Shown here piece after piece: positions 2,780 through 58,662 of a stretch of 64,000 nt of DNA. Below the pieces are notes generated by a model. It searched no databases and had not been told where the DNA came from. It saw only the letters and a list, made by a program, of their open reading frames with translations. The translations under genes and the position numbers were made by a program. The stretch is taken from the NCBI GenBank assembly GCA_022530585.1, contig CP092821.1:521525-585524 (forward strand), read 5' to 3'. The first letter of the stretch is position 1; each line of letters begins with the position of its first letter. Origin of the DNA: Candidatus Nealsonbacteria bacterium DGGOD1a. GTDB taxonomy: Bacteria > Patescibacteriota > Minisyncoccia > Minisyncoccales > UBA5738.

Positions 2780-2817
2780 TTCTATAAATTCAGCTATGGC
2801 TAAAAATATAGAATAAA
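2780..2817. repeat. 38-nt palindromic element ttctataaattYagctatggctaaaaatatagaataaa (copy 1)
   Basis: Repeated with one mismatch at 39208-39245. Outer arms ttctata/tatagaa and inner tagc/gcta hairpin. Confidence 0.7.
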
Positions 2818-2948
2818 AAAATACATTGATGCCGGGGTATTAACCCCGCCGTCAACCAAAGGATGTTTCCTTCAAGATTACTTGCGCTTTGCTAAGGAAT
2901 CCTCATTCTTTTTGCCCCCGCGGCGAGCTGACGGGGCATAAAAAGAAT
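2816..2948 (+). repeat. Structured ~90-130-nt intergenic repeat family, copy 1 (three hairpins)
   Basis: Blocks ggggtattaacccc, ccaaaggatgtttcctt, ggaatcctc and ccccg..gcgagctga..cgggg flanked by attcttttt/aaaaagaat. Related copies at 13255-13375(-), 29764-29851(-) and 57820-57933(+). Confidence 0.7.
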
Positions 2949-13241: not shown

Positions 13242-13254
13242 AGGCCGTATTTAA

Positions 13255-13375
13255 TTCTTTTTATACTTCGTCAGCTTGCCACGGAGAACAAAAAGAATGA
13301 GGAGTTCTTAACAAAGCTCAAGTGATCTTGGAGAAAACATCTTCCGATTGCGGCGGGGTCAATGCCCCGACGCAA
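13255..13375 (-). repeat. Structured intergenic repeat family, copy 2
   Basis: The reverse complement aligns with 2830-2948 (ggggcattgacccc hairpin, ..ctcctcattctttttg..gcaagctgacg..aaaaagaat). Confidence 0.65.
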
Positions 13376-28201: not shown

Positions 28202-28561
28202 ATGAATTATAATGTTCTTATCCAATTTTGCTACACCATGGCATGCATCGCCTTTGGAATATTGTTAATCCCATATGATCGGCTATTGGGCATGGAACTC
28301 ATGGGATTAATTAATATTTTTGGCAATCTGGCAATATTTAATCCGGGATTTACCTATACCGAGGAAAGCAACGATATTAGCGAAGCGATTGCTGGTGGTG
28401 CGTATTGTTCCCTGATACCCGCAATACTATACGGGGCAGCGATATGGCGTTTTGGTTCATTTACATATGGATTGATCGCCAGTTTGATATTTATTGCCGG
28501 GACGATTATTGTTCATTACGGATGGAATAAAGTGCTCTACCGTCCGAAGGGCCGATTTTAG
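28202..28561 (+). CDS. Membrane protein, hypothetical (4 TM)
   Basis: Own TTGACA-16-TATAAT promoter (28153-28180) and AAGGAGG SD (28187-28193). Confidence 0.5.
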   Translation: MNYNVLIQFCYTMACIAFGILLIPYDRLLGMELMGLINIFGNLAIFNPGFTYTEESNDISEAIAGGAYCSLIPAILYGAAIWRFGSFTYGLIASLIFIAGTIIVHYGWNKVLYRPKGRF

Positions 28562-29763: not shown

Positions 29764-29851
29764 CCTCGGGGCTTTGCCCCGGGGTGCACCAAGAGGATTC
29801 CAAAGGGGTGCCCCCTTTGGTCGTCGTGCGGGGTTCATACCCCGCTCGACG
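29764..29851 (-). repeat. Structured intergenic repeat family, copy 4 (short form)
   Basis: The reverse complement gives gcggggtatgaaccccgc, ccaaagggggcaccccTTTGGAATCCTC and ccccggggcaaagccccg, collinear with 57820-57933 and with compensatory stem changes. Confidence 0.6.
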
Positions 29852-30940: not shown

Positions 30941-32015
30941 CTAGTGAAATGCAACTTTTTGATTAAATTTCTCCGAATGTTTTTCTCCCCGCTAACGCGG
31001 GATTTTTTGTATAATACCACGCTTTAGCGAAACTTCATAAGCGGAGCGGTATCCCAATGATTTTCGGTATTTGCCGTTAAGAATATGCAAGCAATTTTGG
31101 AATTGCTCTTCGGAGACATTTTTCAAATCGGTTCCCTTTGGAATGAACCACCGGCGGGCAAGTCCGATGCCGTTTTCCGCATGGGGTTTTTGCCACGGGC
31201 TGTGAGGGTCGCAAAAATATGTCGGCAATCCGAACTGCTCATGTTCTTTGTTTTCGATGCCGTTGTCGAAGGTTAAATCGCTAATATTTAAATCCATGGT
31301 CATGCTTTTAACCGCCGCGACCATCGTGGCCGGTTTTTTGTTTTCAATCATTGTGCCGACCAATAGCTTTGAAGCCGGAACGCAGATGATCGCGCCGCTG
31401 TTTTGACTGCCGGTTTTGGTTGGCGAAACAAACAGATCGCCTTCGGCGTGGATGCCGCGCTTGGACCGTTTGCTAATGGAAACCCTATTGGGGATCATCT
31501 CTCTTTTGGCTTTCCTTTTCTGCTTGCGCGAATGATAGCGCTTGGCGCAAAGCAAATGACAGTATGCCTGGCCCCAGGCGCTGTAAAGCCATTTATAAAT
31601 GGCATTGGCGCCAATTCTCGGATTCTGCTTTTCGCGCTTCATTCGTCCGGCGATTTCATCCGGGGAACGATGGTTTTCCAACCCGGCGATAATTTGTTCT
31701 CGCAGAGCGGGATATTTTTCAACCTTCATTCCTTGATGCTTGCTGTACGATCTTTTCACTCGCGCTTTTTGCTGGGCGGTTTTGGCGGAATAGACGCCGT
31801 TCTTTCGTTTTCTTTTGTTGATTTCCCGGCTGATGGCGCTGGCGTCAAAGTCCAACACCTTGGCGATTTCTTCTTGTTTGTGGCTGGCGTTCTTTAACGC
31901 TTCAATGCGGTCTCGATCAAATTGGTTAAGGTGGCGGAAGCGCCGCCTTTTTTTGCGTAATTTTTTGGTTTCTTTTTTCATACAACCTCATTTTACCGAA
32001 GTTGCATTTCAAAAG
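30941..32015 (-). mobile_element. IS30-family insertion sequence (~1.07 kb)
   Basis: Imperfect terminal inverted repeats (core gaaatgcaactt 30946-30957 / aagttgcatttc 31999-32010) enclosing the transposase. Confidence 0.7.
30992..31981 (-). CDS. IS30 family DDE transposase
   Basis: 329 aa. N-terminal HTH (RDRIEALKNASHKQEEIAKVL), TFDNGIENKEHEQF and WQKPHAENGIGLARRW motifs. Confidence 0.85.
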   Translation of the reverse strand: MKKETKKLRKKRRRFRHLNQFDRDRIEALKNASHKQEEIAKVLDFDASAISREINKRKRKNGVYSAKTAQQKARVKRSYSKHQGMKVEKYPALREQIIAGLENHRSPDEIAGRMKREKQNPRIGANAIYKWLYSAWGQAYCHLLCAKRYHSRKQKRKAKREMIPNRVSISKRSKRGIHAEGDLFVSPTKTGSQNSGAIICVPASKLLVGTMIENKKPATMVAAVKSMTMDLNISDLTFDNGIENKEHEQFGLPTYFCDPHSPWQKPHAENGIGLARRWFIPKGTDLKNVSEEQFQNCLHILNGKYRKSLGYRSAYEVSLKRGIIQKIPR

Positions 32016-37303: not shown

Positions 37304-38948
<1,645 letters not shown>

Positions 38949-39207
38949 ACATTTTTGAGTGTCGGCTTTTGTCGAGGGACGAGAATTCTTCTCTTGACAC
39001 CAAGACGCTGATCGGTTCGTCTCTAAGAAACCGATTTCGAAAGTCCAAGGCGACTTCAAGCAATTCTTTTATTCGTAGTGGAAATCAAAGCACCCGCAGG
39101 GGTGTTTTTGCGCTAACAAAAATTTGGCAACAGACCCATTATGTCCCCGATGATTATGTGTTTTTTGCGGTCACGGAATTTTATAATTTTTTTATACAAA
39201 ACCGATA

Positions 39208-39245
39208 TTCTATAAATTTAGCTATGGCTAAAAATATAGAATAAA
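39208..39245. repeat. 38-nt palindromic element (copy 2)
   Basis: One mismatch relative to 2780-2817. Confidence 0.7.
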
Positions 39246-39440
39246 TTTTATTGACGGAATACGAGGGTTTGGTAGGATACAAATAGAAATCAAAATTCAA
39301 AATCAAATTATAAAACCAAAAATAAAATTGATGAAAAAATAAATTTAAAGGCCGCGGTTTGAAAAAAATACAAGCAATATGTTTCATATCAATCATGCGC
39401 CAGTCAAAACTAAACGAATCCGAGTTCAAAGATTAATGAT

Positions 39441-40016
39441 ATGATAAAAAAGGTTCCAAAAAATAAAAAACGGATTAACAAAACCGAGATGCCGGTGAAA
39501 ATTCCAAAAAAAGTGGAAGGTTTTTTGAGTAAAACGGGGATTAAATGTGAAACAATAACTCATCGCACGGTCTATACCGCGTTTGACAAGGCGGCGACTT
39601 TAAAAATAAAGACAGGCGCGATCGCCAAAGTTTTGGTGATTAAAATTGACAGGGAATTGGCAATGGCGGTTATCGGCGGAGACAGGAATTTGGATATGGA
39701 TAAGCTGGCAAAACTCGCCAAGGCAAAGAAAATTGATTTTGCCAAAGAAAAAATTATTGCCGAAACTTTTAAAGGTATTGACCCGGGAGCGATCCCGCCC
39801 TTTGCCGGTTTGTGGCAAATACGCGTTTTTTGCGACAAAAAATTTCTGGAATCGCCAAAAATAATAATATCCGCCGGAAGTTATGAAGCGTCGCTGATAA
39901 TCACCCCCGCCGCATTTAAAAAAACCAACCCCGAAATGGCAATTGGCAATTTTTCGGCCGCCAAACCCAAATTAAAAAAGCCGATTAAGGCCGCCTTGAA
40001 AAAAAGAAGGAAATAG
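39441..40016 (+). CDS. YbaK/EbsC-type aminoacyl-tRNA deacylase domain protein with Lys-rich termini
   Basis: Core TVYTAFDKAATL..IAKVLVIK..LAMAVIGGDRNLDMDKLAKL..GAIPPFAG..ISAGS. Confidence 0.65.
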   Translation: MIKKVPKNKKRINKTEMPVKIPKKVEGFLSKTGIKCETITHRTVYTAFDKAATLKIKTGAIAKVLVIKIDRELAMAVIGGDRNLDMDKLAKLAKAKKIDFAKEKIIAETFKGIDPGAIPPFAGLWQIRVFCDKKFLESPKIIISAGSYEASLIITPAAFKKTNPEMAIGNFSAAKPKLKKPIKAALKKRRK

Positions 40017-40035
40017 GGTATAAATAGTTTGTTGC

Positions 40036-40107
40036 GGGCGCGTAGTTAAGTGGTATAACGCCGTCCTGATAAGACGGAGGCCGAAGGTCCGATTCCTTCC
40101 GCGCCCA
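40036..40107 (+). tRNA. tRNA-Ile (anticodon GAT)
   Basis: Acceptor GGGCGCG/CGCGCCC, anticodon stem CCGTC/GACGG with loop CTGATAA, T arm GAAGG-TCCGATT-CCTTC. Confidence 0.85.
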
Positions 40108-40157
40108 CATTAAAAAATCCCGTTTCCGGGATTTTTGCTTTAAAAGGTTTTTACGAT

Positions 40158-41456
40158 TTATTGGTGTTTCAATTTTAAAACAAGAAAAGCGGCGGCCAGG
40201 CATAGAATACCGGCGAGAATAAAGGAATTTGCGTAACTGCCGGCCTCCATTAACTTGACGATTGTTTTACCCGCGGTATCAACGGTTTCGTAAGGTACAT
40301 CCCGAACCGCAAGTAAAAGTTTTGGCGCGAGCCACGGCCCAACCAGTCCGCCGGCGCCGTAGGCGGTAAACATCAAGCCGTAGTTGGCGCCGATGTTTTT
40401 CGCGCCGAAATAATCCGCGGTAATCGCCGGATAAAGCGCCAAAAATCCGCCGAAACAAAAGCCAATAAGAGACGCGACTGCGGCAAAGCTCCAAAAACTG
40501 TTCAATCCTCCTAAAATCAGTAGCGCGATGCCGCATAGCGCAAAAATTGCCATCAAAGTTTTTTCGCGGCCCATTTTATCTGAAATTAGACCCCAGACAA
40601 TGCGGCCCGAACTATTTAGAATTGATACCGCCATCACCGCCAGCGTTCCCTGCGCCAGAATTTGCGAAAATTGCACCGCCGTAATGATTCCGGCGATCTT
40701 TGCAAAACCGGACGCAACCTGCGCCTGCCAGATATTTACCAAATTCATTATCACCATCAATCCCGCCGCACAACCGATAAAATAGGTAATCCACAAAATC
40801 CAAAAGCGGCGGGTTTGGACCATCTCCTTGGTCGTGAAATCAGCCTTTTGATTGATGGCGGCCACCGGCGGCATCCATCCGGCGGGACAATAACCGGCCG
40901 GCGGCACGCGCATTAACTGCGCTCCGGCCACAATGGCAAAAAAATAAACCAAACCAAGATAAAACAATGCCGCCATAATGCCGATATGGGCGATCAGATA
41001 ACTCGCGAGCGGCGCAAACACCAATCCTCCGGCGCCAAATCCCGCCACTGCCAGTCCGGTAATCAGGCCGCGCTTGTCCGGAAACCATTTCACGCAGGTT
41101 GCGATCGGGCAGACATAAGCCGCGTAAATACCGATGCCGCCCAAAACTCCGAATCCGAATACAAACTGGAGCAAAGTTTGCGCTTTAGCGGCAATACACA
41201 TTCCCAATAATAATATAAACGCGCCAATTATGGCGGTTATTTTGGGTCCGATTTTATCTTGAATCTTGCCCGCAACAATCATGATTAACGCGCCTATTCC
41301 CAGCAGAACTTGGGCTGGCAGAGCGATATCGGTTGCCGACCAGGTTGGAAAATGTTCTTTCAAGGCCGGCTTAAAAACACTGTAAATATAGATCGCGCCC
41401 AGGCTAACCTGGATAAGCAAAGCCCCCAGCACCACGAACCAGCGGTTATGTTTCAT
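40158..41456 (-). CDS. MFS transporter (oxalate/formate antiporter-like)
   Basis: 12 TM helices. KIQDKIGPK and WFPDKRGLITGLAVAGFGAGG motifs. Start placed at MKHNRWFVVLG. Confidence 0.8.
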   Translation of the reverse strand: MKHNRWFVVLGALLIQVSLGAIYIYSVFKPALKEHFPTWSATDIALPAQVLLGIGALIMIVAGKIQDKIGPKITAIIGAFILLLGMCIAAKAQTLLQFVFGFGVLGGIGIYAAYVCPIATCVKWFPDKRGLITGLAVAGFGAGGLVFAPLASYLIAHIGIMAALFYLGLVYFFAIVAGAQLMRVPPAGYCPAGWMPPVAAINQKADFTTKEMVQTRRFWILWITYFIGCAAGLMVIMNLVNIWQAQVASGFAKIAGIITAVQFSQILAQGTLAVMAVSILNSSGRIVWGLISDKMGREKTLMAIFALCGIALLILGGLNSFWSFAAVASLIGFCFGGFLALYPAITADYFGAKNIGANYGLMFTAYGAGGLVGPWLAPKLLLAVRDVPYETVDTAGKTIVKLMEAGSYANSFILAGILCLAAAFLVLKLKHQ

Positions 41457-41602
41457 AAATTTATGATTATTACGCCATTCTATCAAACCCCGCCGTTAAA
41501 GCAATTGCAATCGGGCTATTTTTTGCTATTGTATATTTGTTGAATTTGCTTCATTTGAGTTCGTGTTTAAACTCATCGCTTGCGACTCATCAACCATTTC
41601 CC

Positions 41603-41678
41603 GGGCCTTTAGCTCAGCCGGCAGAGCGCCTCATTTGCAATGAGGAGGTCGGCGGTTCGAATCCGCCAAGGTCCACCA
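41603..41678 (+). tRNA. tRNA-Ala (anticodon TGC), CCA encoded
   Basis: Acceptor GGGCCTT/AAGGTCC with G3:U70, anticodon loop TTTGCAA, T arm GGCGG-TTCGAAT-CCGCC. Confidence 0.9.
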
Positions 41679-54849: not shown

Positions 54850-55464
54850 ATGCGCCTGAAAATCCTGTCAAAACGAGCGATGTTGACGGTTGCCCTTTTT
54901 TCGGGGTCTGTTCTGTTCGCGGCCATTCTTTTGCCTCATACCCCAAAAAACTTAATTCATGACGGTTCGGCGTCGCTTATTGAAAATGCCGCCATTCTCT
55001 CAAATGAAGAACCGGCAAGCGTTGAATTGCCGGCGCGCCTTAAAATTCCGACAATTGATGTTGACTCCGCCGTTATTCCGATGGGCCTTACTTCCGACGG
55101 AGCAATGGATGTGCCGAAAAGCCCCACCGAAGTGGCATGGTTCGACCTCGGACTGCGCCCCGGAGAAAATGGCGCCGCCGTTATTGCCGGCCACTACGGC
55201 TGGAAAAACAATACACCGGGGGTATTTGATAATTTATATAAATTGGCCGTAGGCGACAAGATATTCGTTGAAGACGAAAAGGGATCAACCGCGGCTTTTG
55301 TTGTGCGCGAAGTTAAAATATACGGCAAAGATGAGGCCGTTCCGGATGCGTTTGTCTCAAGCGACGGGAAGGCGCATCTCAATCTCGTTACTTGCGCGGG
55401 AGCTTGGGATAAGGCGGAAAAAACCCGTTTCGAGCGGCTCATAGTTTTTACCGACAAAGAATAG
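54850..55464 (+). CDS. Class F-like sortase
   Basis: LKIPTIDVDSAV, AVIAGHYG (His), LNLVTCAG (Cys), RFERLIVF (Arg). Directly downstream of the LPNTG substrate gene. Confidence 0.8.
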   Translation: MRLKILSKRAMLTVALFSGSVLFAAILLPHTPKNLIHDGSASLIENAAILSNEEPASVELPARLKIPTIDVDSAVIPMGLTSDGAMDVPKSPTEVAWFDLGLRPGENGAAVIAGHYGWKNNTPGVFDNLYKLAVGDKIFVEDEKGSTAAFVVREVKIYGKDEAVPDAFVSSDGKAHLNLVTCAGAWDKAEKTRFERLIVFTDKE

Positions 55465-55596
55465 GCTTGGCGTTCGGGATTGGCGAAAAAATGAAGCGGC
55501 CGCGGGAACAATCAAGAATTTGGAAGAAAAATTTTCGGAAAATAATTTTTCCAAAAAAAACACTCCAAAGGAGTGTTTTTCGTATTGTCCGGCGAC

Positions 55597-56502
55597 CTAA
55601 GTTTTAAATATTTCCGTTGAAAGATATTGTTCGCCTCTGTCGGGAAAGATCGTGACGATCGTGCCGCTTTTGGCCTTGCGCGCGTAATTTTGCGCCACCA
55701 GCATGGCCGCGCCGGAACTGATTCCGGCAAAAATACCTTCTTCCATGGTTATGCGGCGCGCCATTTCGCCCGCTTCTTTTTCGCCGATCTCGACAATCGC
55801 ATCAACCAAAACCTTGGAATGGTCGGCGCAAGGCGCGTTGGCGGCCAATACCGGCGCGGGCGCGTTAGTCTCGATTGAAGATCCGCTGCTCCATATTCGG
55901 GGCTGAATGCCGATAACCCGCACTTGCGGATACCGTTCTTTCAGTTGCCGCGCGATACCGGAAATCGTCCCGCCGGTACCGACGCAAGAAATGAAATAAT
56001 CGATCGGCCCGGGTACCTGGCTGATAATTTCCTTGGCGGTGGTGCGATAATGGGCCTGGCAATTTTCCTTGTTGATGTACTGGTTCAAAACCACCAGACC
56101 GGAGTCTTTGGCAACCATTTCGTTAACCATATTGATCGCGCCTTGACGCCACATCTCGGGTTTAACCAATATAACTTTAGCGCCGAATCCGGCGATAACC
56201 CGCCGCCGTTCTTCGCTGGCGGTTTCTGGTGACACAATAATAGTCTTATAGCCCTTGGCCGCGGCCACCATCGCGATTCCCACGCCGGTGTTGCCGTTGG
56301 TAATCTCGATTATCGTTTTATCCTTTGTTAACCGGCCGGTCTTTTCCGCGTCCTCGATCATCGCCAAAGCCACGCGGTCTTTCATTGACCCGCCGGGATT
56401 AAAACCTTCCAGCTTGGCAAATGTCTTCACTTCGGGATTGGGATTCAATTTTTTGATTTCCACCAGCGGCGTGTTTCCGATGGCGCTTAATATTGTATTC
56501 AT
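55597..56502 (-). CDS. PLP-dependent cysteine synthase family protein (CysK/CysM/CBS-like), paralog A
   Basis: IGNTPLVEIKKL, KLEGFNPGGSMKDR (PLP Lys), TNGNTGVG, GTGGTISG. Start placed at MNTILSAIG. Confidence 0.85.
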   Translation of the reverse strand: MNTILSAIGNTPLVEIKKLNPNPEVKTFAKLEGFNPGGSMKDRVALAMIEDAEKTGRLTKDKTIIEITNGNTGVGIAMVAAAKGYKTIIVSPETASEERRRVIAGFGAKVILVKPEMWRQGAINMVNEMVAKDSGLVVLNQYINKENCQAHYRTTAKEIISQVPGPIDYFISCVGTGGTISGIARQLKERYPQVRVIGIQPRIWSSGSSIETNAPAPVLAANAPCADHSKVLVDAIVEIGEKEAGEMARRITMEEGIFAGISSGAAMLVAQNYARKAKSGTIVTIFPDRGEQYLSTEIFKT

Positions 56503-56518
56503 ATTTTTTGATTGTAGT

Positions 56519-56643
56519 AAAAACGCCTCCCGGACAGAGAGGCGCAGATTGGTAGCTGTAATTACCGACAAAAATCCGCCCCCTCAACAGGTGAGAGCAA
56601 AACAAACGCAGATCGATTTTTTGCCGGTATATAAAGTCTTCAT
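56519..56643 (-). promoter_or_regulatory. Leader of paralog A: 19-codon ORF with 3 Cys codons plus terminator (candidate Cys attenuator)
   Basis: Minus-strand ORF 56643-56584, MKTLYTGKKSICVCFALTC*. The stop abuts GGGGGCGG, which is complementary to the terminator 5' arm. Terminator CGCCTC-9nt-GAGGCG-TTTTT at 56544-56519, 16 nt before the start codon. Confidence 0.55.
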
Positions 56644-56746
56644 ATTTCTATTATATTGATTTTATCAAGAAAGATTTGATTTTGTCAATGCTTGCGTGCT
56701 TGTTGTTCTTGTATGCTCCGCGATTCCCCCGCAATTTCTTTCGCGG

Positions 56747-57661
56747 TTACGCGGCAAACATTTCCGTGCTCAAATATTTTTCTCCGCGGTCGGGAAACAC
56801 GGTGACAATTACGCCTTTTTCGATTTTTCGCGCGTATTTTATCGCCATTGCCATCGCCGCGCCCGAACTGGCGCCGACAAACAGTCCTTCTTTTCGCGCC
56901 AAATCCTTGGCCGCGGCGAAAGCTCCCGCGGAATCAACATCTATAATGATATCGATTAGCGACTTTGAATGGTCCGCGCAAGGCAGACTTGGGCAGAGGA
57001 TCGGCGGGACATAGCCGTCTTTGACTGATTTTAACCCTTCAATTTTTTCTCCCGGCATAGGCTGGATCCCGATCACACGCACATCGGGGCAACTCTCCCG
57101 CAAACTTCGGGCAATCCCGGTTATCGTTCCTCCCGTTCCCACGCCGGCGATAAAATAGTCGACTTCTCCGCCGATCTCGTTGATTATTTCCTTGCCGGTC
57201 GTTCGATAATGAATATCGCAATTCTGCTGATTTTCGAATTGGTTGAGCATCACCAAATTTCCGTCGGCCGCCACCATCGCTTTCACTTTTTTTATCGCCG
57301 CGTCGCGCCATTCTTCGGGCTTGACCAGAATCAGTTCCGCGCCGAAAGCCTTGATCATTTTTCGGCGTTCGACGCTCATATGTTCAGGCATCATAATAAT
57401 AACCTTGTAAGCTTTCATGGCCGCCACCATCGCGACGCTGATGCCGGTATTCCCGCTGGTCGGTTCGATTATAGTTTGTCCCTTTTTCAGCCGGCCGGTC
57501 TTCTCCGCATCCTCGATCATCGCCAAAGCAATTCTGTCTTTGATTGACCCGGTGGGATTGAAACCCTCAAGTTTGGCAAATATTTTAACATTCGGATTCG
57601 GATTCAGTTTTTTGATTTCCACCAGCGGGGTGTTTCCGATCAGCGAAAGTATTGAATTCAT
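56747..57661 (-). CDS. PLP-dependent cysteine synthase family protein, paralog B
   Basis: IGNTPLVEIKKL, KLEGFNPTGSIKDR, TSGNTGIS, GTGGTITG. 304 aa. Confidence 0.85.
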   Translation of the reverse strand: MNSILSLIGNTPLVEIKKLNPNPNVKIFAKLEGFNPTGSIKDRIALAMIEDAEKTGRLKKGQTIIEPTSGNTGISVAMVAAMKAYKVIIMMPEHMSVERRKMIKAFGAELILVKPEEWRDAAIKKVKAMVAADGNLVMLNQFENQQNCDIHYRTTGKEIINEIGGEVDYFIAGVGTGGTITGIARSLRESCPDVRVIGIQPMPGEKIEGLKSVKDGYVPPILCPSLPCADHSKSLIDIIIDVDSAGAFAAAKDLARKEGLFVGASSGAAMAMAIKYARKIEKGVIVTVFPDRGEKYLSTEMFAA

Positions 57662-57700
57662 ATTATTAGTGGTTGATTATTGCATTTAATTGTTAAACTC

Positions 57701-57814
57701 CAAACAAAACGCCTCTTTTGCGAGAGGCGGGCGGGTTAACAGAACAAAACCGCTTCTCGTTCAAAAGAGGCTCATACAGGCGCAGGCGATTTTCTTTCCC
57801 CGATGATTTTCCAT
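57701..57814 (-). promoter_or_regulatory. Leader of paralog B: 17-codon ORF with 2 Cys codons plus terminator (candidate Cys attenuator)
   Basis: Minus-strand ORF 57814-57761, MENHRGKKIACACMSLF*. GAGAAGCGG, 2 nt after the stop, is complementary to CCGCCTCTC (terminator 5' arm). Terminator CGCCTCT-cgcaaa-AGAGGCG-TTTTGTTT at 57729-57701. Confidence 0.55.
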
Positions 57815-57819
57815 AAATA

Positions 57820-57933
57820 AAAAATACATTGATGTCGGGGTATTAACCCCGCCATCAACCAAAGGATGTTTCCTTTGGAATCCTCATTTTTTTATTCCCC
57901 GCAGCAAGCTGACGGGGTATAATAAAAGGAATT
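57820..57933 (+). repeat. Structured intergenic repeat family, copy 3
   Basis: aaaaatacattgatgtcggggtattaaccccgcc..ccaaaggatgtttcctttggaatcctc..ccccgcagcaagctgacgggg. Confidence 0.7.
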
Positions 57934-58050
57934 AACAATAAGCTTATATTAACAAAAGACGCCCCATTGTCAATATATCGCTCAAATAAAGGATGTGGTA
58001 AACTTAAGATACGGCATCATATAACCATAAAATCATTTAATCACAAACAA

Positions 58051-58662
58051 ATGAATAAATTCGACGCGATCATCGCCGCGGCCATTGGCGAAGCCACGGC
58101 ATGGTATTTTATCAATCTTTTGGGTGAACAAGGCGTGGTGGAAAAATTGGGATGGTTGGGACAATATCTATGGATATTGGCGATAATTTTTCCGATATTG
58201 GCCGCGCTCGCGCTATGGATCGCCTCGCTGATAGGTAAAAAGTTCGTTTCAATTTACCAGCTGGCCAAATTCTTGCTCATTGGAGTGATCGCCACAATTT
58301 TTGATCTGGGAACATTGGCTTTCTTTATAAATGTTTCCGGCATAAGCTCCGGCTTGGGTTTTAATTTGTTCAAAGGCGCGTCATTTATTATTGCCACGGT
58401 TTTAAAATATATTCCCGACAAATATTGGGCCTTCAAAAAGAAAGAGGCGGCAAACATAAAAAAAGAATTCATCCAATTTTTCGCGGTTACGCTTATCGGT
58501 TTGGCGATTAATGTGTTTATCGCCGATTTCATCGTTAATGTGACGGGGCCGCAATTCGGCTTGCCCGCCAAACTCTGGGCAAATCTGGGCGGCATCGGCG
58601 CGGTAATCGTAACTTTCGCGTGGAACTTTATCGGCTATAAATTTATAGTATTTAAGAAATAG
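58051..58662 (+). CDS. GtrA family membrane protein
   Basis: KFLLIGVIATIFDLGTLAFF and WAFKK motifs. 6 TM helices (GtrA core plus an N-terminal extension). Start placed at MNKFDAII. Confidence 0.65.
   Translation: MNKFDAIIAAAIGEATAWYFINLLGEQGVVEKLGWLGQYLWILAIIFPILAALALWIASLIGKKFVSIYQLAKFLLIGVIATIFDLGTLAFFINVSGISSGLGFNLFKGASFIIATVLKYIPDKYWAFKKKEAANIKKEFIQFFAVTLIGLAINVFIADFIVNVTGPQFGLPAKLWANLGGIGAVIVTFAWNFIGYKFIVFKK

Follow-up and report, generated by a model that had tools for sequence, protein, structure and literature searches.

The DNA analysed here, called the window throughout, is a stretch of 64,000 nucleotides (nt) from Candidatus Nealsonbacteria bacterium DGGOD1a. Its minus strand carries two tandem genes of the cysK/M family, paralog B first and then paralog A. 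Each is preceded by a leader in which a short open reading frame (ORF) with cysteine codons is followed by an intrinsic terminator. Judging from sequence comparison and folding models, both leaders most likely control transcription by ribosome-mediated (leader-peptide) attenuation, with the supply of Cys-tRNA(Cys) as the signal.

An earlier note on this DNA, made from the letters alone, had taken both downstream genes to be of the cysteine synthase type. That is what they are: both fall in the cysK/M family, and they are 62% identical to each other.

56747..57661, minus strand: cysK/M paralog B, 304 amino acids, cysK-like ATG at 57661; TIGR01136 (cysKM) 363.8 bits, above the cut-off of 344.15
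55597..56502, minus strand: cysK/M paralog A, 301 amino acids, cysK-like ATG at 56502; TIGR01136 319 bits, under the cut-off

Each paralog has its own strong promoter of the sigma-70 type. Downstream of it, four segments of the leader matter. Region 1 consists of the end of the ORF (CCUCUU..) and the KKS codons (AAAAAAUCG), which are able to pair with region 2. Region 2 is the G-rich segment that starts at the stop codon (CGAGAAGCGG in B, GAGGGGGCGGAUU in A), and is complementary to region 3. Region 3 is the 5' arm of the terminator plus the bases just upstream, and region 4 is the 3' arm. For leader A the parts are as follows.

56659..56688, minus strand: promoter A, TTGACA, 18-nt spacer, TAAAAT, with TG before the -10; 11/12 matches in the promoter scan
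56584..56643, minus strand: leader ORF A, MKTLYTGKKSICVCFALTC and stop; TGC at 56610-08, TGT at 56604-02, TGT at 56589-87, stop TGA at 56586-84
56564..56585, minus strand: region 2 of leader A (GAGGGGGCGGAUUUUUGUCGGU), which pairs with the ORF (1:2) or with the terminator 5' arm (2:3)
56519..56552, minus strand: regions 3 and 4 of leader A, CCAAUCU, then terminator GCGCCUCUCUGUCCGGGAGGCGU (56545..56523) and a U-tract; -14.9 kcal/mol

Leader B has the same parts, with one addition.

57946..57973, minus strand: promoter B, TTGACA, 16-nt spacer, TAATAT, from the promoter scan
57815..57935, minus strand: inserted repeat with three hairpins, between promoter B and ORF B; missing from the 94%-identical locus L001
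57761..57814, minus strand: leader ORF B, MENHRGKKIACACMSLF and stop; TGC at 57784-57782, TGT at 57778-57776, stop TGA at 57763-57761
57750..57759, minus strand: region 2 of leader B (CGAGAAGCGG), which forms the antiterminator as its 5' strand in the minimum-free-energy fold and is covered, in the ribosome-mask model, by a ribosome on the stop codon
57702..57730, minus strand: regions 3 and 4 of leader B, terminator CGCCUCUCGCAAAAGAGGCG (57729..57710), then UUUUGUUU; -10.5 kcal/mol

The earlier note had described most of these parts, and they were found again. This goes for both ORFs, with three Cys codons in A (TGC, TGT, TGT) and two in B (TGC, TGT). It also goes for the terminators, GCGCCTCTCTGTCCGGGAGGCGT+TTTT at 56545..56523 in A and CGCCTCTCGCAAAAGAGGCG+TTTTGTTT at 57729..57710 in B, which end ~16 nt and ~40 nt before the cysK-like ATG. 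The segment after the stop was said to pair with the terminator 5' arm, and the 2:3 duplexes come to -21.7 kcal/mol in A and -15.2 kcal/mol in B. In the minimum-free-energy fold of leader B, the partner of region 2 is CCGCCUCUCG at 57730..57721, and the extra complementarity claimed between the ORF end and the terminator appears as a pairing of GCCUCUUUUG with CAAAAGAGGC. In leader A, the minimum-free-energy fold contains the 1:2 hairpin.

The proposed mechanism is of the trp/his type. Transcription would start at the sigma-70-type promoter, and the first AUG would open an ORF of 17-19 codons. The ORF end, the G-rich segment after the stop and the terminator arms could then pair in two ways, 1:2 together with 3:4 on the one hand and 2:3 on the other. 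In cells with enough cysteine, the ribosome would reach the stop codon and mask region 2, the 3:4 terminator would form, and transcription would end before cysK. With Cys-tRNA scarce the ribosome would stall 5-7 codons ahead of the stop, on the internal Cys codons, covering region 1 and leaving region 2 free. Region 2 would then capture region 3 before region 4 has been made, no terminator would form, and transcription would read through into the cysteine synthase gene. We infer that the ORF is translated, that ribosomes stall on it, and that read-through depends on cysteine. The earlier note had already suggested this logic, and it is supported by the conserved ORF, the terminators, the co-varying 2:3 pairing, a ribosome-mask model and the poly-Cys leaders of a sister clade.

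Relatives were found by searching genome and metagenome collections with both CysK proteins. This delivered 26 close loci (L001-L009, L081-L096 and L123), all from metagenome-assembled genomes (MAGs) of Patescibacteria. The closest is a Minisyncoccales MAG with 94-96% protein identity. The B-then-A tandem is kept across the clade, and the same leader stands ahead of B in nearly every related locus. It also stands ahead of A, but only where the spacer between B and A is long, which is the case in the window, L001, L081, L009, L085, L086, L087 and L095. In the other loci the gap between B and A measures 24-75 nt, and the leader of B is common to both genes. The earlier note's statement that each paralog has its own leader is thus correct for the window, while the A leader is confined to a long-spacer sub-clade and many relatives have one leader for both genes.

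The design of these leaders is constant. The -35 is a perfect TTGACA in every related leader with a recognisable promoter. The first ATG lies 6-28 nt (mostly 13-21 nt) past the -10 and opens an ORF of 14-22 codons, after which come the G-rich segment and an intrinsic terminator. Among more distant cysK homologues (125 loci examined), the same leader was found in none of the Desulfobacterales and was absent from most Bacteroidota loci.

There is good reason to think that the ORF is actually read. In 20/20 sequence-distinct leaders, reading from the first ATG past the promoter leads in frame and without a stop to the sensor Cys codon; composition-preserving shuffles give ~0.11 per leader for this. 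The distance from the -10 to the Cys codon takes phases 0, 1 and 2 modulo 3, and the ATG is nonetheless always in frame. Stop codons vary but stay stops (TGA 17, TAA 6, TAG 4). Start, frame and stop position are kept while the peptide sequence drifts.

Within this drifting peptide the cysteine stands out. Cys makes up 10% of codons in the frame of the ORF. The other two frames have 2.1% and 1.2%, and the long ORFs of the window 1.4%. The window leaders have 2-3 Cys in 17-19 codons. A conserved Cys is present in all related ORFs but L009A, where the sensor Cys is AAA, and L095A has one extra Cys near the N-terminus. Wherever a leader has a sensor Cys, it is placed 5-6 codons ahead of the stop, except in L004B (10 codons). 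When close leader pairs are compared, the changes in Cys codons are between TGC and TGT (five comparisons), and neighbouring codons change freely. The earlier note had proposed looking for upkeep of the ORF and its Cys codons in orthologous leaders, and with the TGC/TGT swaps and the in-frame ATGs this is what the comparison shows.

Both strands of the window were searched for ATG ORFs that are 9-33 codons long, contain two or more Cys and have a terminator-like hairpin after them. There were four hits, two of which are these leaders. The other two, at 28444..28530 and 31219..31284 on the plus strand (MAFWFIYIWIDRQFDIYCRDDYCSLRME and MSAIRTAHVLCFRCRCRRLNR), are probably chance ORFs in or beside genes.

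The pattern of codon changes bears on another explanation, which is that these ORFs encode small functional Cys-containing peptides that are co-expressed with CysK, the hairpins being ordinary terminators. The ORF is after all conserved, and its C-terminal half is hydrophobic (..C-x-C-x-x-L-F). Between close relatives, however, codons that lie outside the Cys codons and the RNA-pairing segments mostly change non-synonymously, which fits a leader peptide of irrelevant sequence. Length and N-terminus also vary freely, and the codons that are conserved (AAA AAA UCG, CCU CUU UU) coincide with the pairing partners of region 2. In addition, a full terminator would leave cysK without a promoter in most loci. 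We consider a functional peptide extremely unlikely. The more specific idea that the peptide docks into CysK, like the C-terminus of CysE, was rejected, since the peptides end differently (F, S, G, C, W, R) and substitutions in them are mostly non-synonymous.

The leaders of a sister clade are richer in cysteine. A more distant Minisyncoccales locus, L012, has a CysK that is 49% identical to paralog B. Here the order is leader MVYQTKKTCCCCCCLISLRKRPV and stop (CCCCCC), terminator, tRNA-Cys(GCA), cysK and then cysS, which passes the TIGR00435 cut-off. Further sister loci were sampled as homologues of the CysK of L012.

L162: leader MKSRINPSLTTCCVCCASLEEGVGSV and stop, Cys pattern CCVCC, then a terminator
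L165: leader MESQTNPKITCCDCCASLMGRG and stop, Cys pattern CCDCC, then a terminator
L166: leader MKNQINPRIITCCACCTSRKEGVWFD and stop, Cys pattern CCACC, then a terminator
L167: leader MNYQISQNYQNCCCNFF and stop, Cys pattern CCC, then a terminator and tRNA-Cys
L134: leader MKLNNYLSLCCCSQVTVGRHCCY and stop, Cys pattern CCC..CC, then a terminator

No poly-Cys leader was found in L161, and the sequence of L168 stops 135 nt upstream of cysK, so its leader is not assessable. The sister-clade leaders have 3-6 Cys codons. In the ribosome-mask model, the Cys run ends 1-3 codons before the onset of masking in L012, L165, L166, L167 and the first run of L134; for L162 this position is not clear. These leaders share no obvious sequence with those of the window beyond the terminator and region 2 motifs CCUCUU/AAGAGG. 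From these sequences, it seems that this solution arose or diversified time and again. Because independent poly-Cys leaders precede related cysK-cysS operons, two of them with tRNA-Cys, the specificity for cysteine is hard to doubt.

It could still be that the attenuator is coupled to translation without being specific for cysteine. The ORF would then report translation capacity or coupling, and Cys would be incidental or constrained by the RNA. Some relatives do have a single Cys, L009A lacks an internal one, and the UGU lies within a conserved RNA stretch. In the model, the antiterminator is favoured by any stall that happens ahead of the last 3 codons. Against this, the Cys position is kept through TGC/TGT changes while flanking codons vary, and Cys is five to eight times as frequent as in the other frames. 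The non-homologous sister leaders, with 3-6 Cys just before the masking boundary and with tRNA-Cys and cysS, also argue for a sensor keyed to cysteine. An attenuator indifferent to cysteine is therefore unlikely.

In the sister clade, tRNA-Cys(GCA) sits between the terminator of the poly-Cys leader and cysK-cysS in two loci, L012 (2769..5296) and L167 (1173..3859). In L012 the tRNA starts ~15 nt past the terminator stem, just beyond the U-tract, because of which it may be made only by read-through. The attenuator in L012 may thus gate a tRNA-Cys gene while sensing the charged form of that same tRNA. In L167 there is a TGTATAAT-like box ahead of the tRNA, which may have its own promoter there.

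Two further cysK-cysS loci, L163 (1600..2000) and L164 (1900..2000), are possibly archaeal; a protein of L164 is labelled Pacearchaeota. They have Cys-rich upstream ORFs, MKRNREINKKNITKKLVSYSCFCCC and MLAKQSCCC, each followed by a stop, 28 and 53 nt before cysK and without a hairpin terminator. L163 also has a tRNA-Cys-like sequence with a ~55-nt insert at the anticodon loop, which ARAGORN does not call. These upstream ORFs may be a different form of the same sensor, either translational or archaeal.

A bolder idea, tentative and rather open to doubt, is that of a cysteine 'ribulon' in Patescibacteria, perhaps extending to those DPANN archaea in which the cysK-cysS cassette is also found. Independently evolved Cys upstream ORFs with terminators would then control every component of the Cys-tRNA(Cys) supply. 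Besides the paralogs of cysteine synthase this would take in cysteinyl-tRNA synthetase and also, in the case of L012, the gene for tRNA-Cys.

The RNA side of the design is equally well kept. A terminator-like hairpin with a U-tract is present in all 33 leaders examined, typically 26-63 nt past the stop. The scan placed the one of L085A 115 nt downstream, and this was reassigned by eye. In most leaders the terminator stems are GC-rich, with energies of -6 to -19 kcal/mol; in L086B, L092B and L085A they are weak (-2 to -4) or not confidently placed.

Compared to shuffles, 24/26 leaders have a stronger 2:3 duplex, with a mean z of -2.3. RNAalifold on a plain MAFFT alignment of 25 leaders found no consensus structure, because the variable spacer and the differing stem registers misalign the columns. 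Co-variation was judged instead from duplex energies, comparing cognate to permuted partners. Cognate 2:3 pairs average -17.7 kcal/mol, versus -13.8 +/- 0.6 kcal/mol for permuted ones, and 0/20,000 permutations were as strong as what is observed (p ~5e-5). Region 2 co-varies with the terminator 5' arm. In L082B and L012 both strands have changed wholesale and the pairing is retained, which is to say that the changes are compensatory. The 1:2 hairpin is strong in L003B, L088B and L089B (-20 to -26 kcal/mol).

This leaves little room for chance, in which short ORFs and terminators just happen to precede two paralogs. Short ORFs are frequent in AT-rich intergenic DNA, and the number of terminator-like sites in the region, 6, shows no excess over the 4.5 +/- 1.9 found in shuffles. 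The design is kept over 26 loci, however, for which the joint null is far below 1e-5 even if there are just five or six independent lineages, and the 2:3 pairing co-varies. Chance is effectively refuted.

A conserved leader RNA might also be a riboswitch or a binding site for a protein, responding to a sulfur metabolite or a regulator, with the ORF as a by-product. Elsewhere, riboswitches or T-boxes control many cys and met genes, and the leaders do have a conserved hairpin with an asymmetric internal loop that contains an almost invariant UGU. But a cmscan of 55400..58200 against Rfam at E <= 10 gave only chance-level matches to unrelated families, far below gathering scores. In Rfam 15 there was no match to the T-box (RF00230), to S-adenosylmethionine (SAM) riboswitches or to any other riboswitch class, and a scan of the whole window at gathering threshold likewise showed no T-box or other relevant family. 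Known riboswitches and T-boxes, which the earlier note had wanted excluded, can be set aside at this level. Furthermore, ATG, frame and stop are conserved with all three stop codons in use, and the internal loop varies in sequence except for the Cys codon. The poly-Cys versions differ greatly in RNA sequence while following the same logic of an ORF plus a terminator. A riboswitch or protein-binding leader is, all in all, very unlikely.

The geometry of a stalled ribosome was modelled by folding the transcript prefix before the terminator 3' arm exists. The ribosome was represented by a mask that reaches from -15 to +12 (or +9) nt, counted from each A-site codon in turn. This replaced a calculation of the equilibrium probability of the terminator hairpin under such masks, the output of which was ambiguous because in B-type leaders the terminator 3' arm has a second partner in the ORF end. 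As long as the ribosome has not moved past the Cys codons, the model has ~80-100% of the terminator 5' arm sequestered. Once it sits on the last 2-3 codons or the stop, sequestration drops to ~20-45%. Part of these folds gave the narrower ranges of ~80-90% and ~20-35%, respectively. In the model, this is the behaviour required of a trp-type attenuator.

Not all Cys codons can do the same job, though. The terminal Cys of leader A (..I-C-stop) is an implausible sensor in this model, and the internal Cys codons are the likely sensors, because a stall at the terminal one would favour termination. The earlier note had let the ribosome stall at Cys codons in general. This stands for the internal ones, while the last Cys of leader A lies inside the masking zone.

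Several observations weigh against the attenuator as proposed. There are only 1-3 Cys codons in the family, usually as C-x-C; several relatives make do with one, and the internal Cys of L009A is gone. As just noted, the last Cys of A-type leaders falls where a stalled ribosome favours termination according to the model. There is no Shine-Dalgarno sequence ahead of the leader ORFs; the cysK genes also lack one. On average the 1:2 pairing is weakly better than in shuffles (mean z -1.15). At equilibrium, ribosome-free B-type RNA prefers a long hairpin, 2:3 stacked on 1b:4, over 1:2 plus 3:4. This long hairpin still abuts the U-tract, and according to the folding model the 3' arm is left unpaired in B-type leaders only with a ribosome over the ORF end. 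Because of the preference for 2:3 plus 1b:4, what happens in the untranslated state depends on folding kinetics. Finally, leader A starts at a canonical spacing, 15 nt from the -10, whereas in leader B an insertion puts the AUG at 131 nt from it.

This insertion of ~120 nt, which the earlier note had missed, splits promoter B from ORF B, and it may alter or weaken the function of this copy of the leader. Judging by its absence from the relative L001, the inserted repeat is not part of the conserved attenuator. A promoter within the element could have given B a short 5' untranslated region (UTR), but the promoter scan showed nothing convincing there. Other copies are found in the window at 2816..2944, 13251..13303 and 29793..29844, and in the relatives at 2660..2751 of L081 and 5004..5033 of L087. 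The element is ~110-130 nt long and keeps its three hairpins among copies, with an extra 22 nt in the middle hairpin of the copy at 2816..2944. It has no Rfam match, and could be a mobile element resembling a miniature inverted-repeat transposable element (MITE), or a small structured RNA.

A different insertion, of ~165 nt and with long inverted repeats (..ctactgcgtaaatatttacgca..), is found in the B-A spacer of L088 (1909..2104) and L094 (3080..3272). The otherwise identical L006 (2971..3001) is without it. It looks like another small mobile element.

Some Bacteroidota cysK homologues (L064, L132, L133, L138, L149 and L152) have similar short ORFs, MAYKKRC.. or MAYQKC.., with two Cys each. 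They lie 23-45 nt upstream of the cysK homologue and recur in several Mucilaginibacter and Chitinophagaceae loci. These may be real upstream ORFs, or a conserved RNA that is read as an ORF by accident.

The cysK/M pair stands isolated amid unrelated genes. Upstream are a divergent GtrA-like gene, a gene for a 23S-IVP protein and dnaX. Downstream are a convergent sortase gene and a gene for a surface protein. The two paralogs also differ from each other in their substrate loop, which reads TNGNTG in A, and TSGNTG in B and in canonical CysK. Paralog A diverges from B over ~30 residues as well (QPRIWSSGSSIETNAPAPVLAANAPCADHSK). From these sequence differences, A and B probably differ in their substrates or reactions.

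Elsewhere in the window, at 37305..41678, a 16S rRNA match spans 1644 nt, where the model has 1533 positions. A tRNA-Ile follows 1.1 kb after this match, and a tRNA-Ala another 1.5 kb on. No 23S rRNA was found at gathering score in the remaining 22 kb of the window. The rRNA operon seems to be interrupted or unlinked, which is often reported for genomes of the Candidate Phyla Radiation (CPR).

Leader-peptide attenuation is not new. The classical attenuators are those of the trp, his, phe, leu, thr and ilv operons of Proteobacteria. Like these, the leaders described here have a short ORF in the 5' leader that is rich in codons for the end product, with overlapping 2:3 and 3:4 pairings, and possibly 1:2 as well, in which 3:4 is an intrinsic terminator. 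The regulatory codons also lie a few codons before the stop, such that a stalled ribosome would free region 2 and a terminating one would mask it. Unlike the classical cases, they are keyed to cysteine, control cysK/M and occur in Patescibacteria. They have few and non-adjacent sensor codons (C-x-C or a single C) and a very short 5' UTR without Shine-Dalgarno, and there is no sequence homology to any Rfam leader family.

In Firmicutes, cys and met genes are controlled by T-box and S-box (SAM) riboswitches, and T-boxes sense the charging of tRNA. What they have in common with the present leaders is the choice between terminator and antiterminator ahead of genes for sulfur amino acids. They differ in having no leader ORF and in their large conserved RNA folds, to which nothing here matches in Rfam at E <= 10.

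Cysteine-keyed leader ORFs have been described before in other phyla. Mycobacteria have polycysteine leaderless short ORFs; the case that has been characterised acts by translational attenuation, through a sequestered ribosome-binding site, and lacks an intrinsic terminator (Canestrari et al. 2020, bioRxiv 10.1101/834739). In Actinobacteria, Cys leader peptides have been predicted and no terminators were found (Seliverstov et al. 2005, PMC1262725). In these cases, as is proposed for the Patescibacteria leaders, a short upstream ORF with Cys codons senses the supply of Cys-tRNA and controls genes of cysteine metabolism in cis. The present leaders are unlike the mycobacterial ones in that the ATG lies 13-21 nt past the -10, from which a short 5' UTR would follow. 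In addition, the Cys codons in the window are non-adjacent, and a terminator takes the place of the helix that sequesters the ribosome-binding site.

In Rhodobacterales, the uORFC-8-2 motif ahead of cysS has a conserved AUG and two Cys codons along with a terminator stem and U-run, and has been predicted to attenuate transcription in a ribosome-mediated way (PMC8632094). Its Cys codons are in tandem, at positions 14-15, inside the first stem (PMC8632094). Here too a gene for the supply of Cys-tRNA is controlled, as in the cysK-cysS operons of L012 and L162-L167. Compared by description only, uORFC-8-2 belongs to another phylum and another gene context, being found with cysS alone. The two are likely of independent origin.

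Full-text literature searches found no report of leader-peptide attenuation in Patescibacteria or CPR. The earlier note had called cysteine-keyed attenuation rarely documented, and not documented for bacteria of this type. The second part agrees with these searches, and the first was somewhat overstated given the mycobacterial ORFs and the Rhodobacterales prediction. What is new is the phylum and the gene context, namely the cysK/M pairs and cysK-cysS with tRNA-Cys. The use of C-x-C or a single Cys codon is unusual.

The leaders add cysteine, with a true intrinsic terminator, to classical leader-peptide attenuation. To our knowledge, almost nothing is known about gene regulation in CPR bacteria, which are uncultivated and have few recognisable regulators. 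An attenuator that is conserved and readable from sequence is a concrete and testable example of it. It would imply that transcription and translation are coupled in these cells, and that reduced genomes actively regulate cysteine synthesis by the charging of Cys-tRNA. Leader ORFs of 14-26 codons are overlooked by gene callers, and they mark units of cysK, cysS and tRNA-Cys as a co-regulated set. If the ribulon exists, it would include the first leader-peptide attenuator to gate the gene of the tRNA that it senses itself. Such a system would also provide direct evidence that transcription and translation are tightly coupled in CPR bacteria whose initiation is not led by a Shine-Dalgarno sequence.

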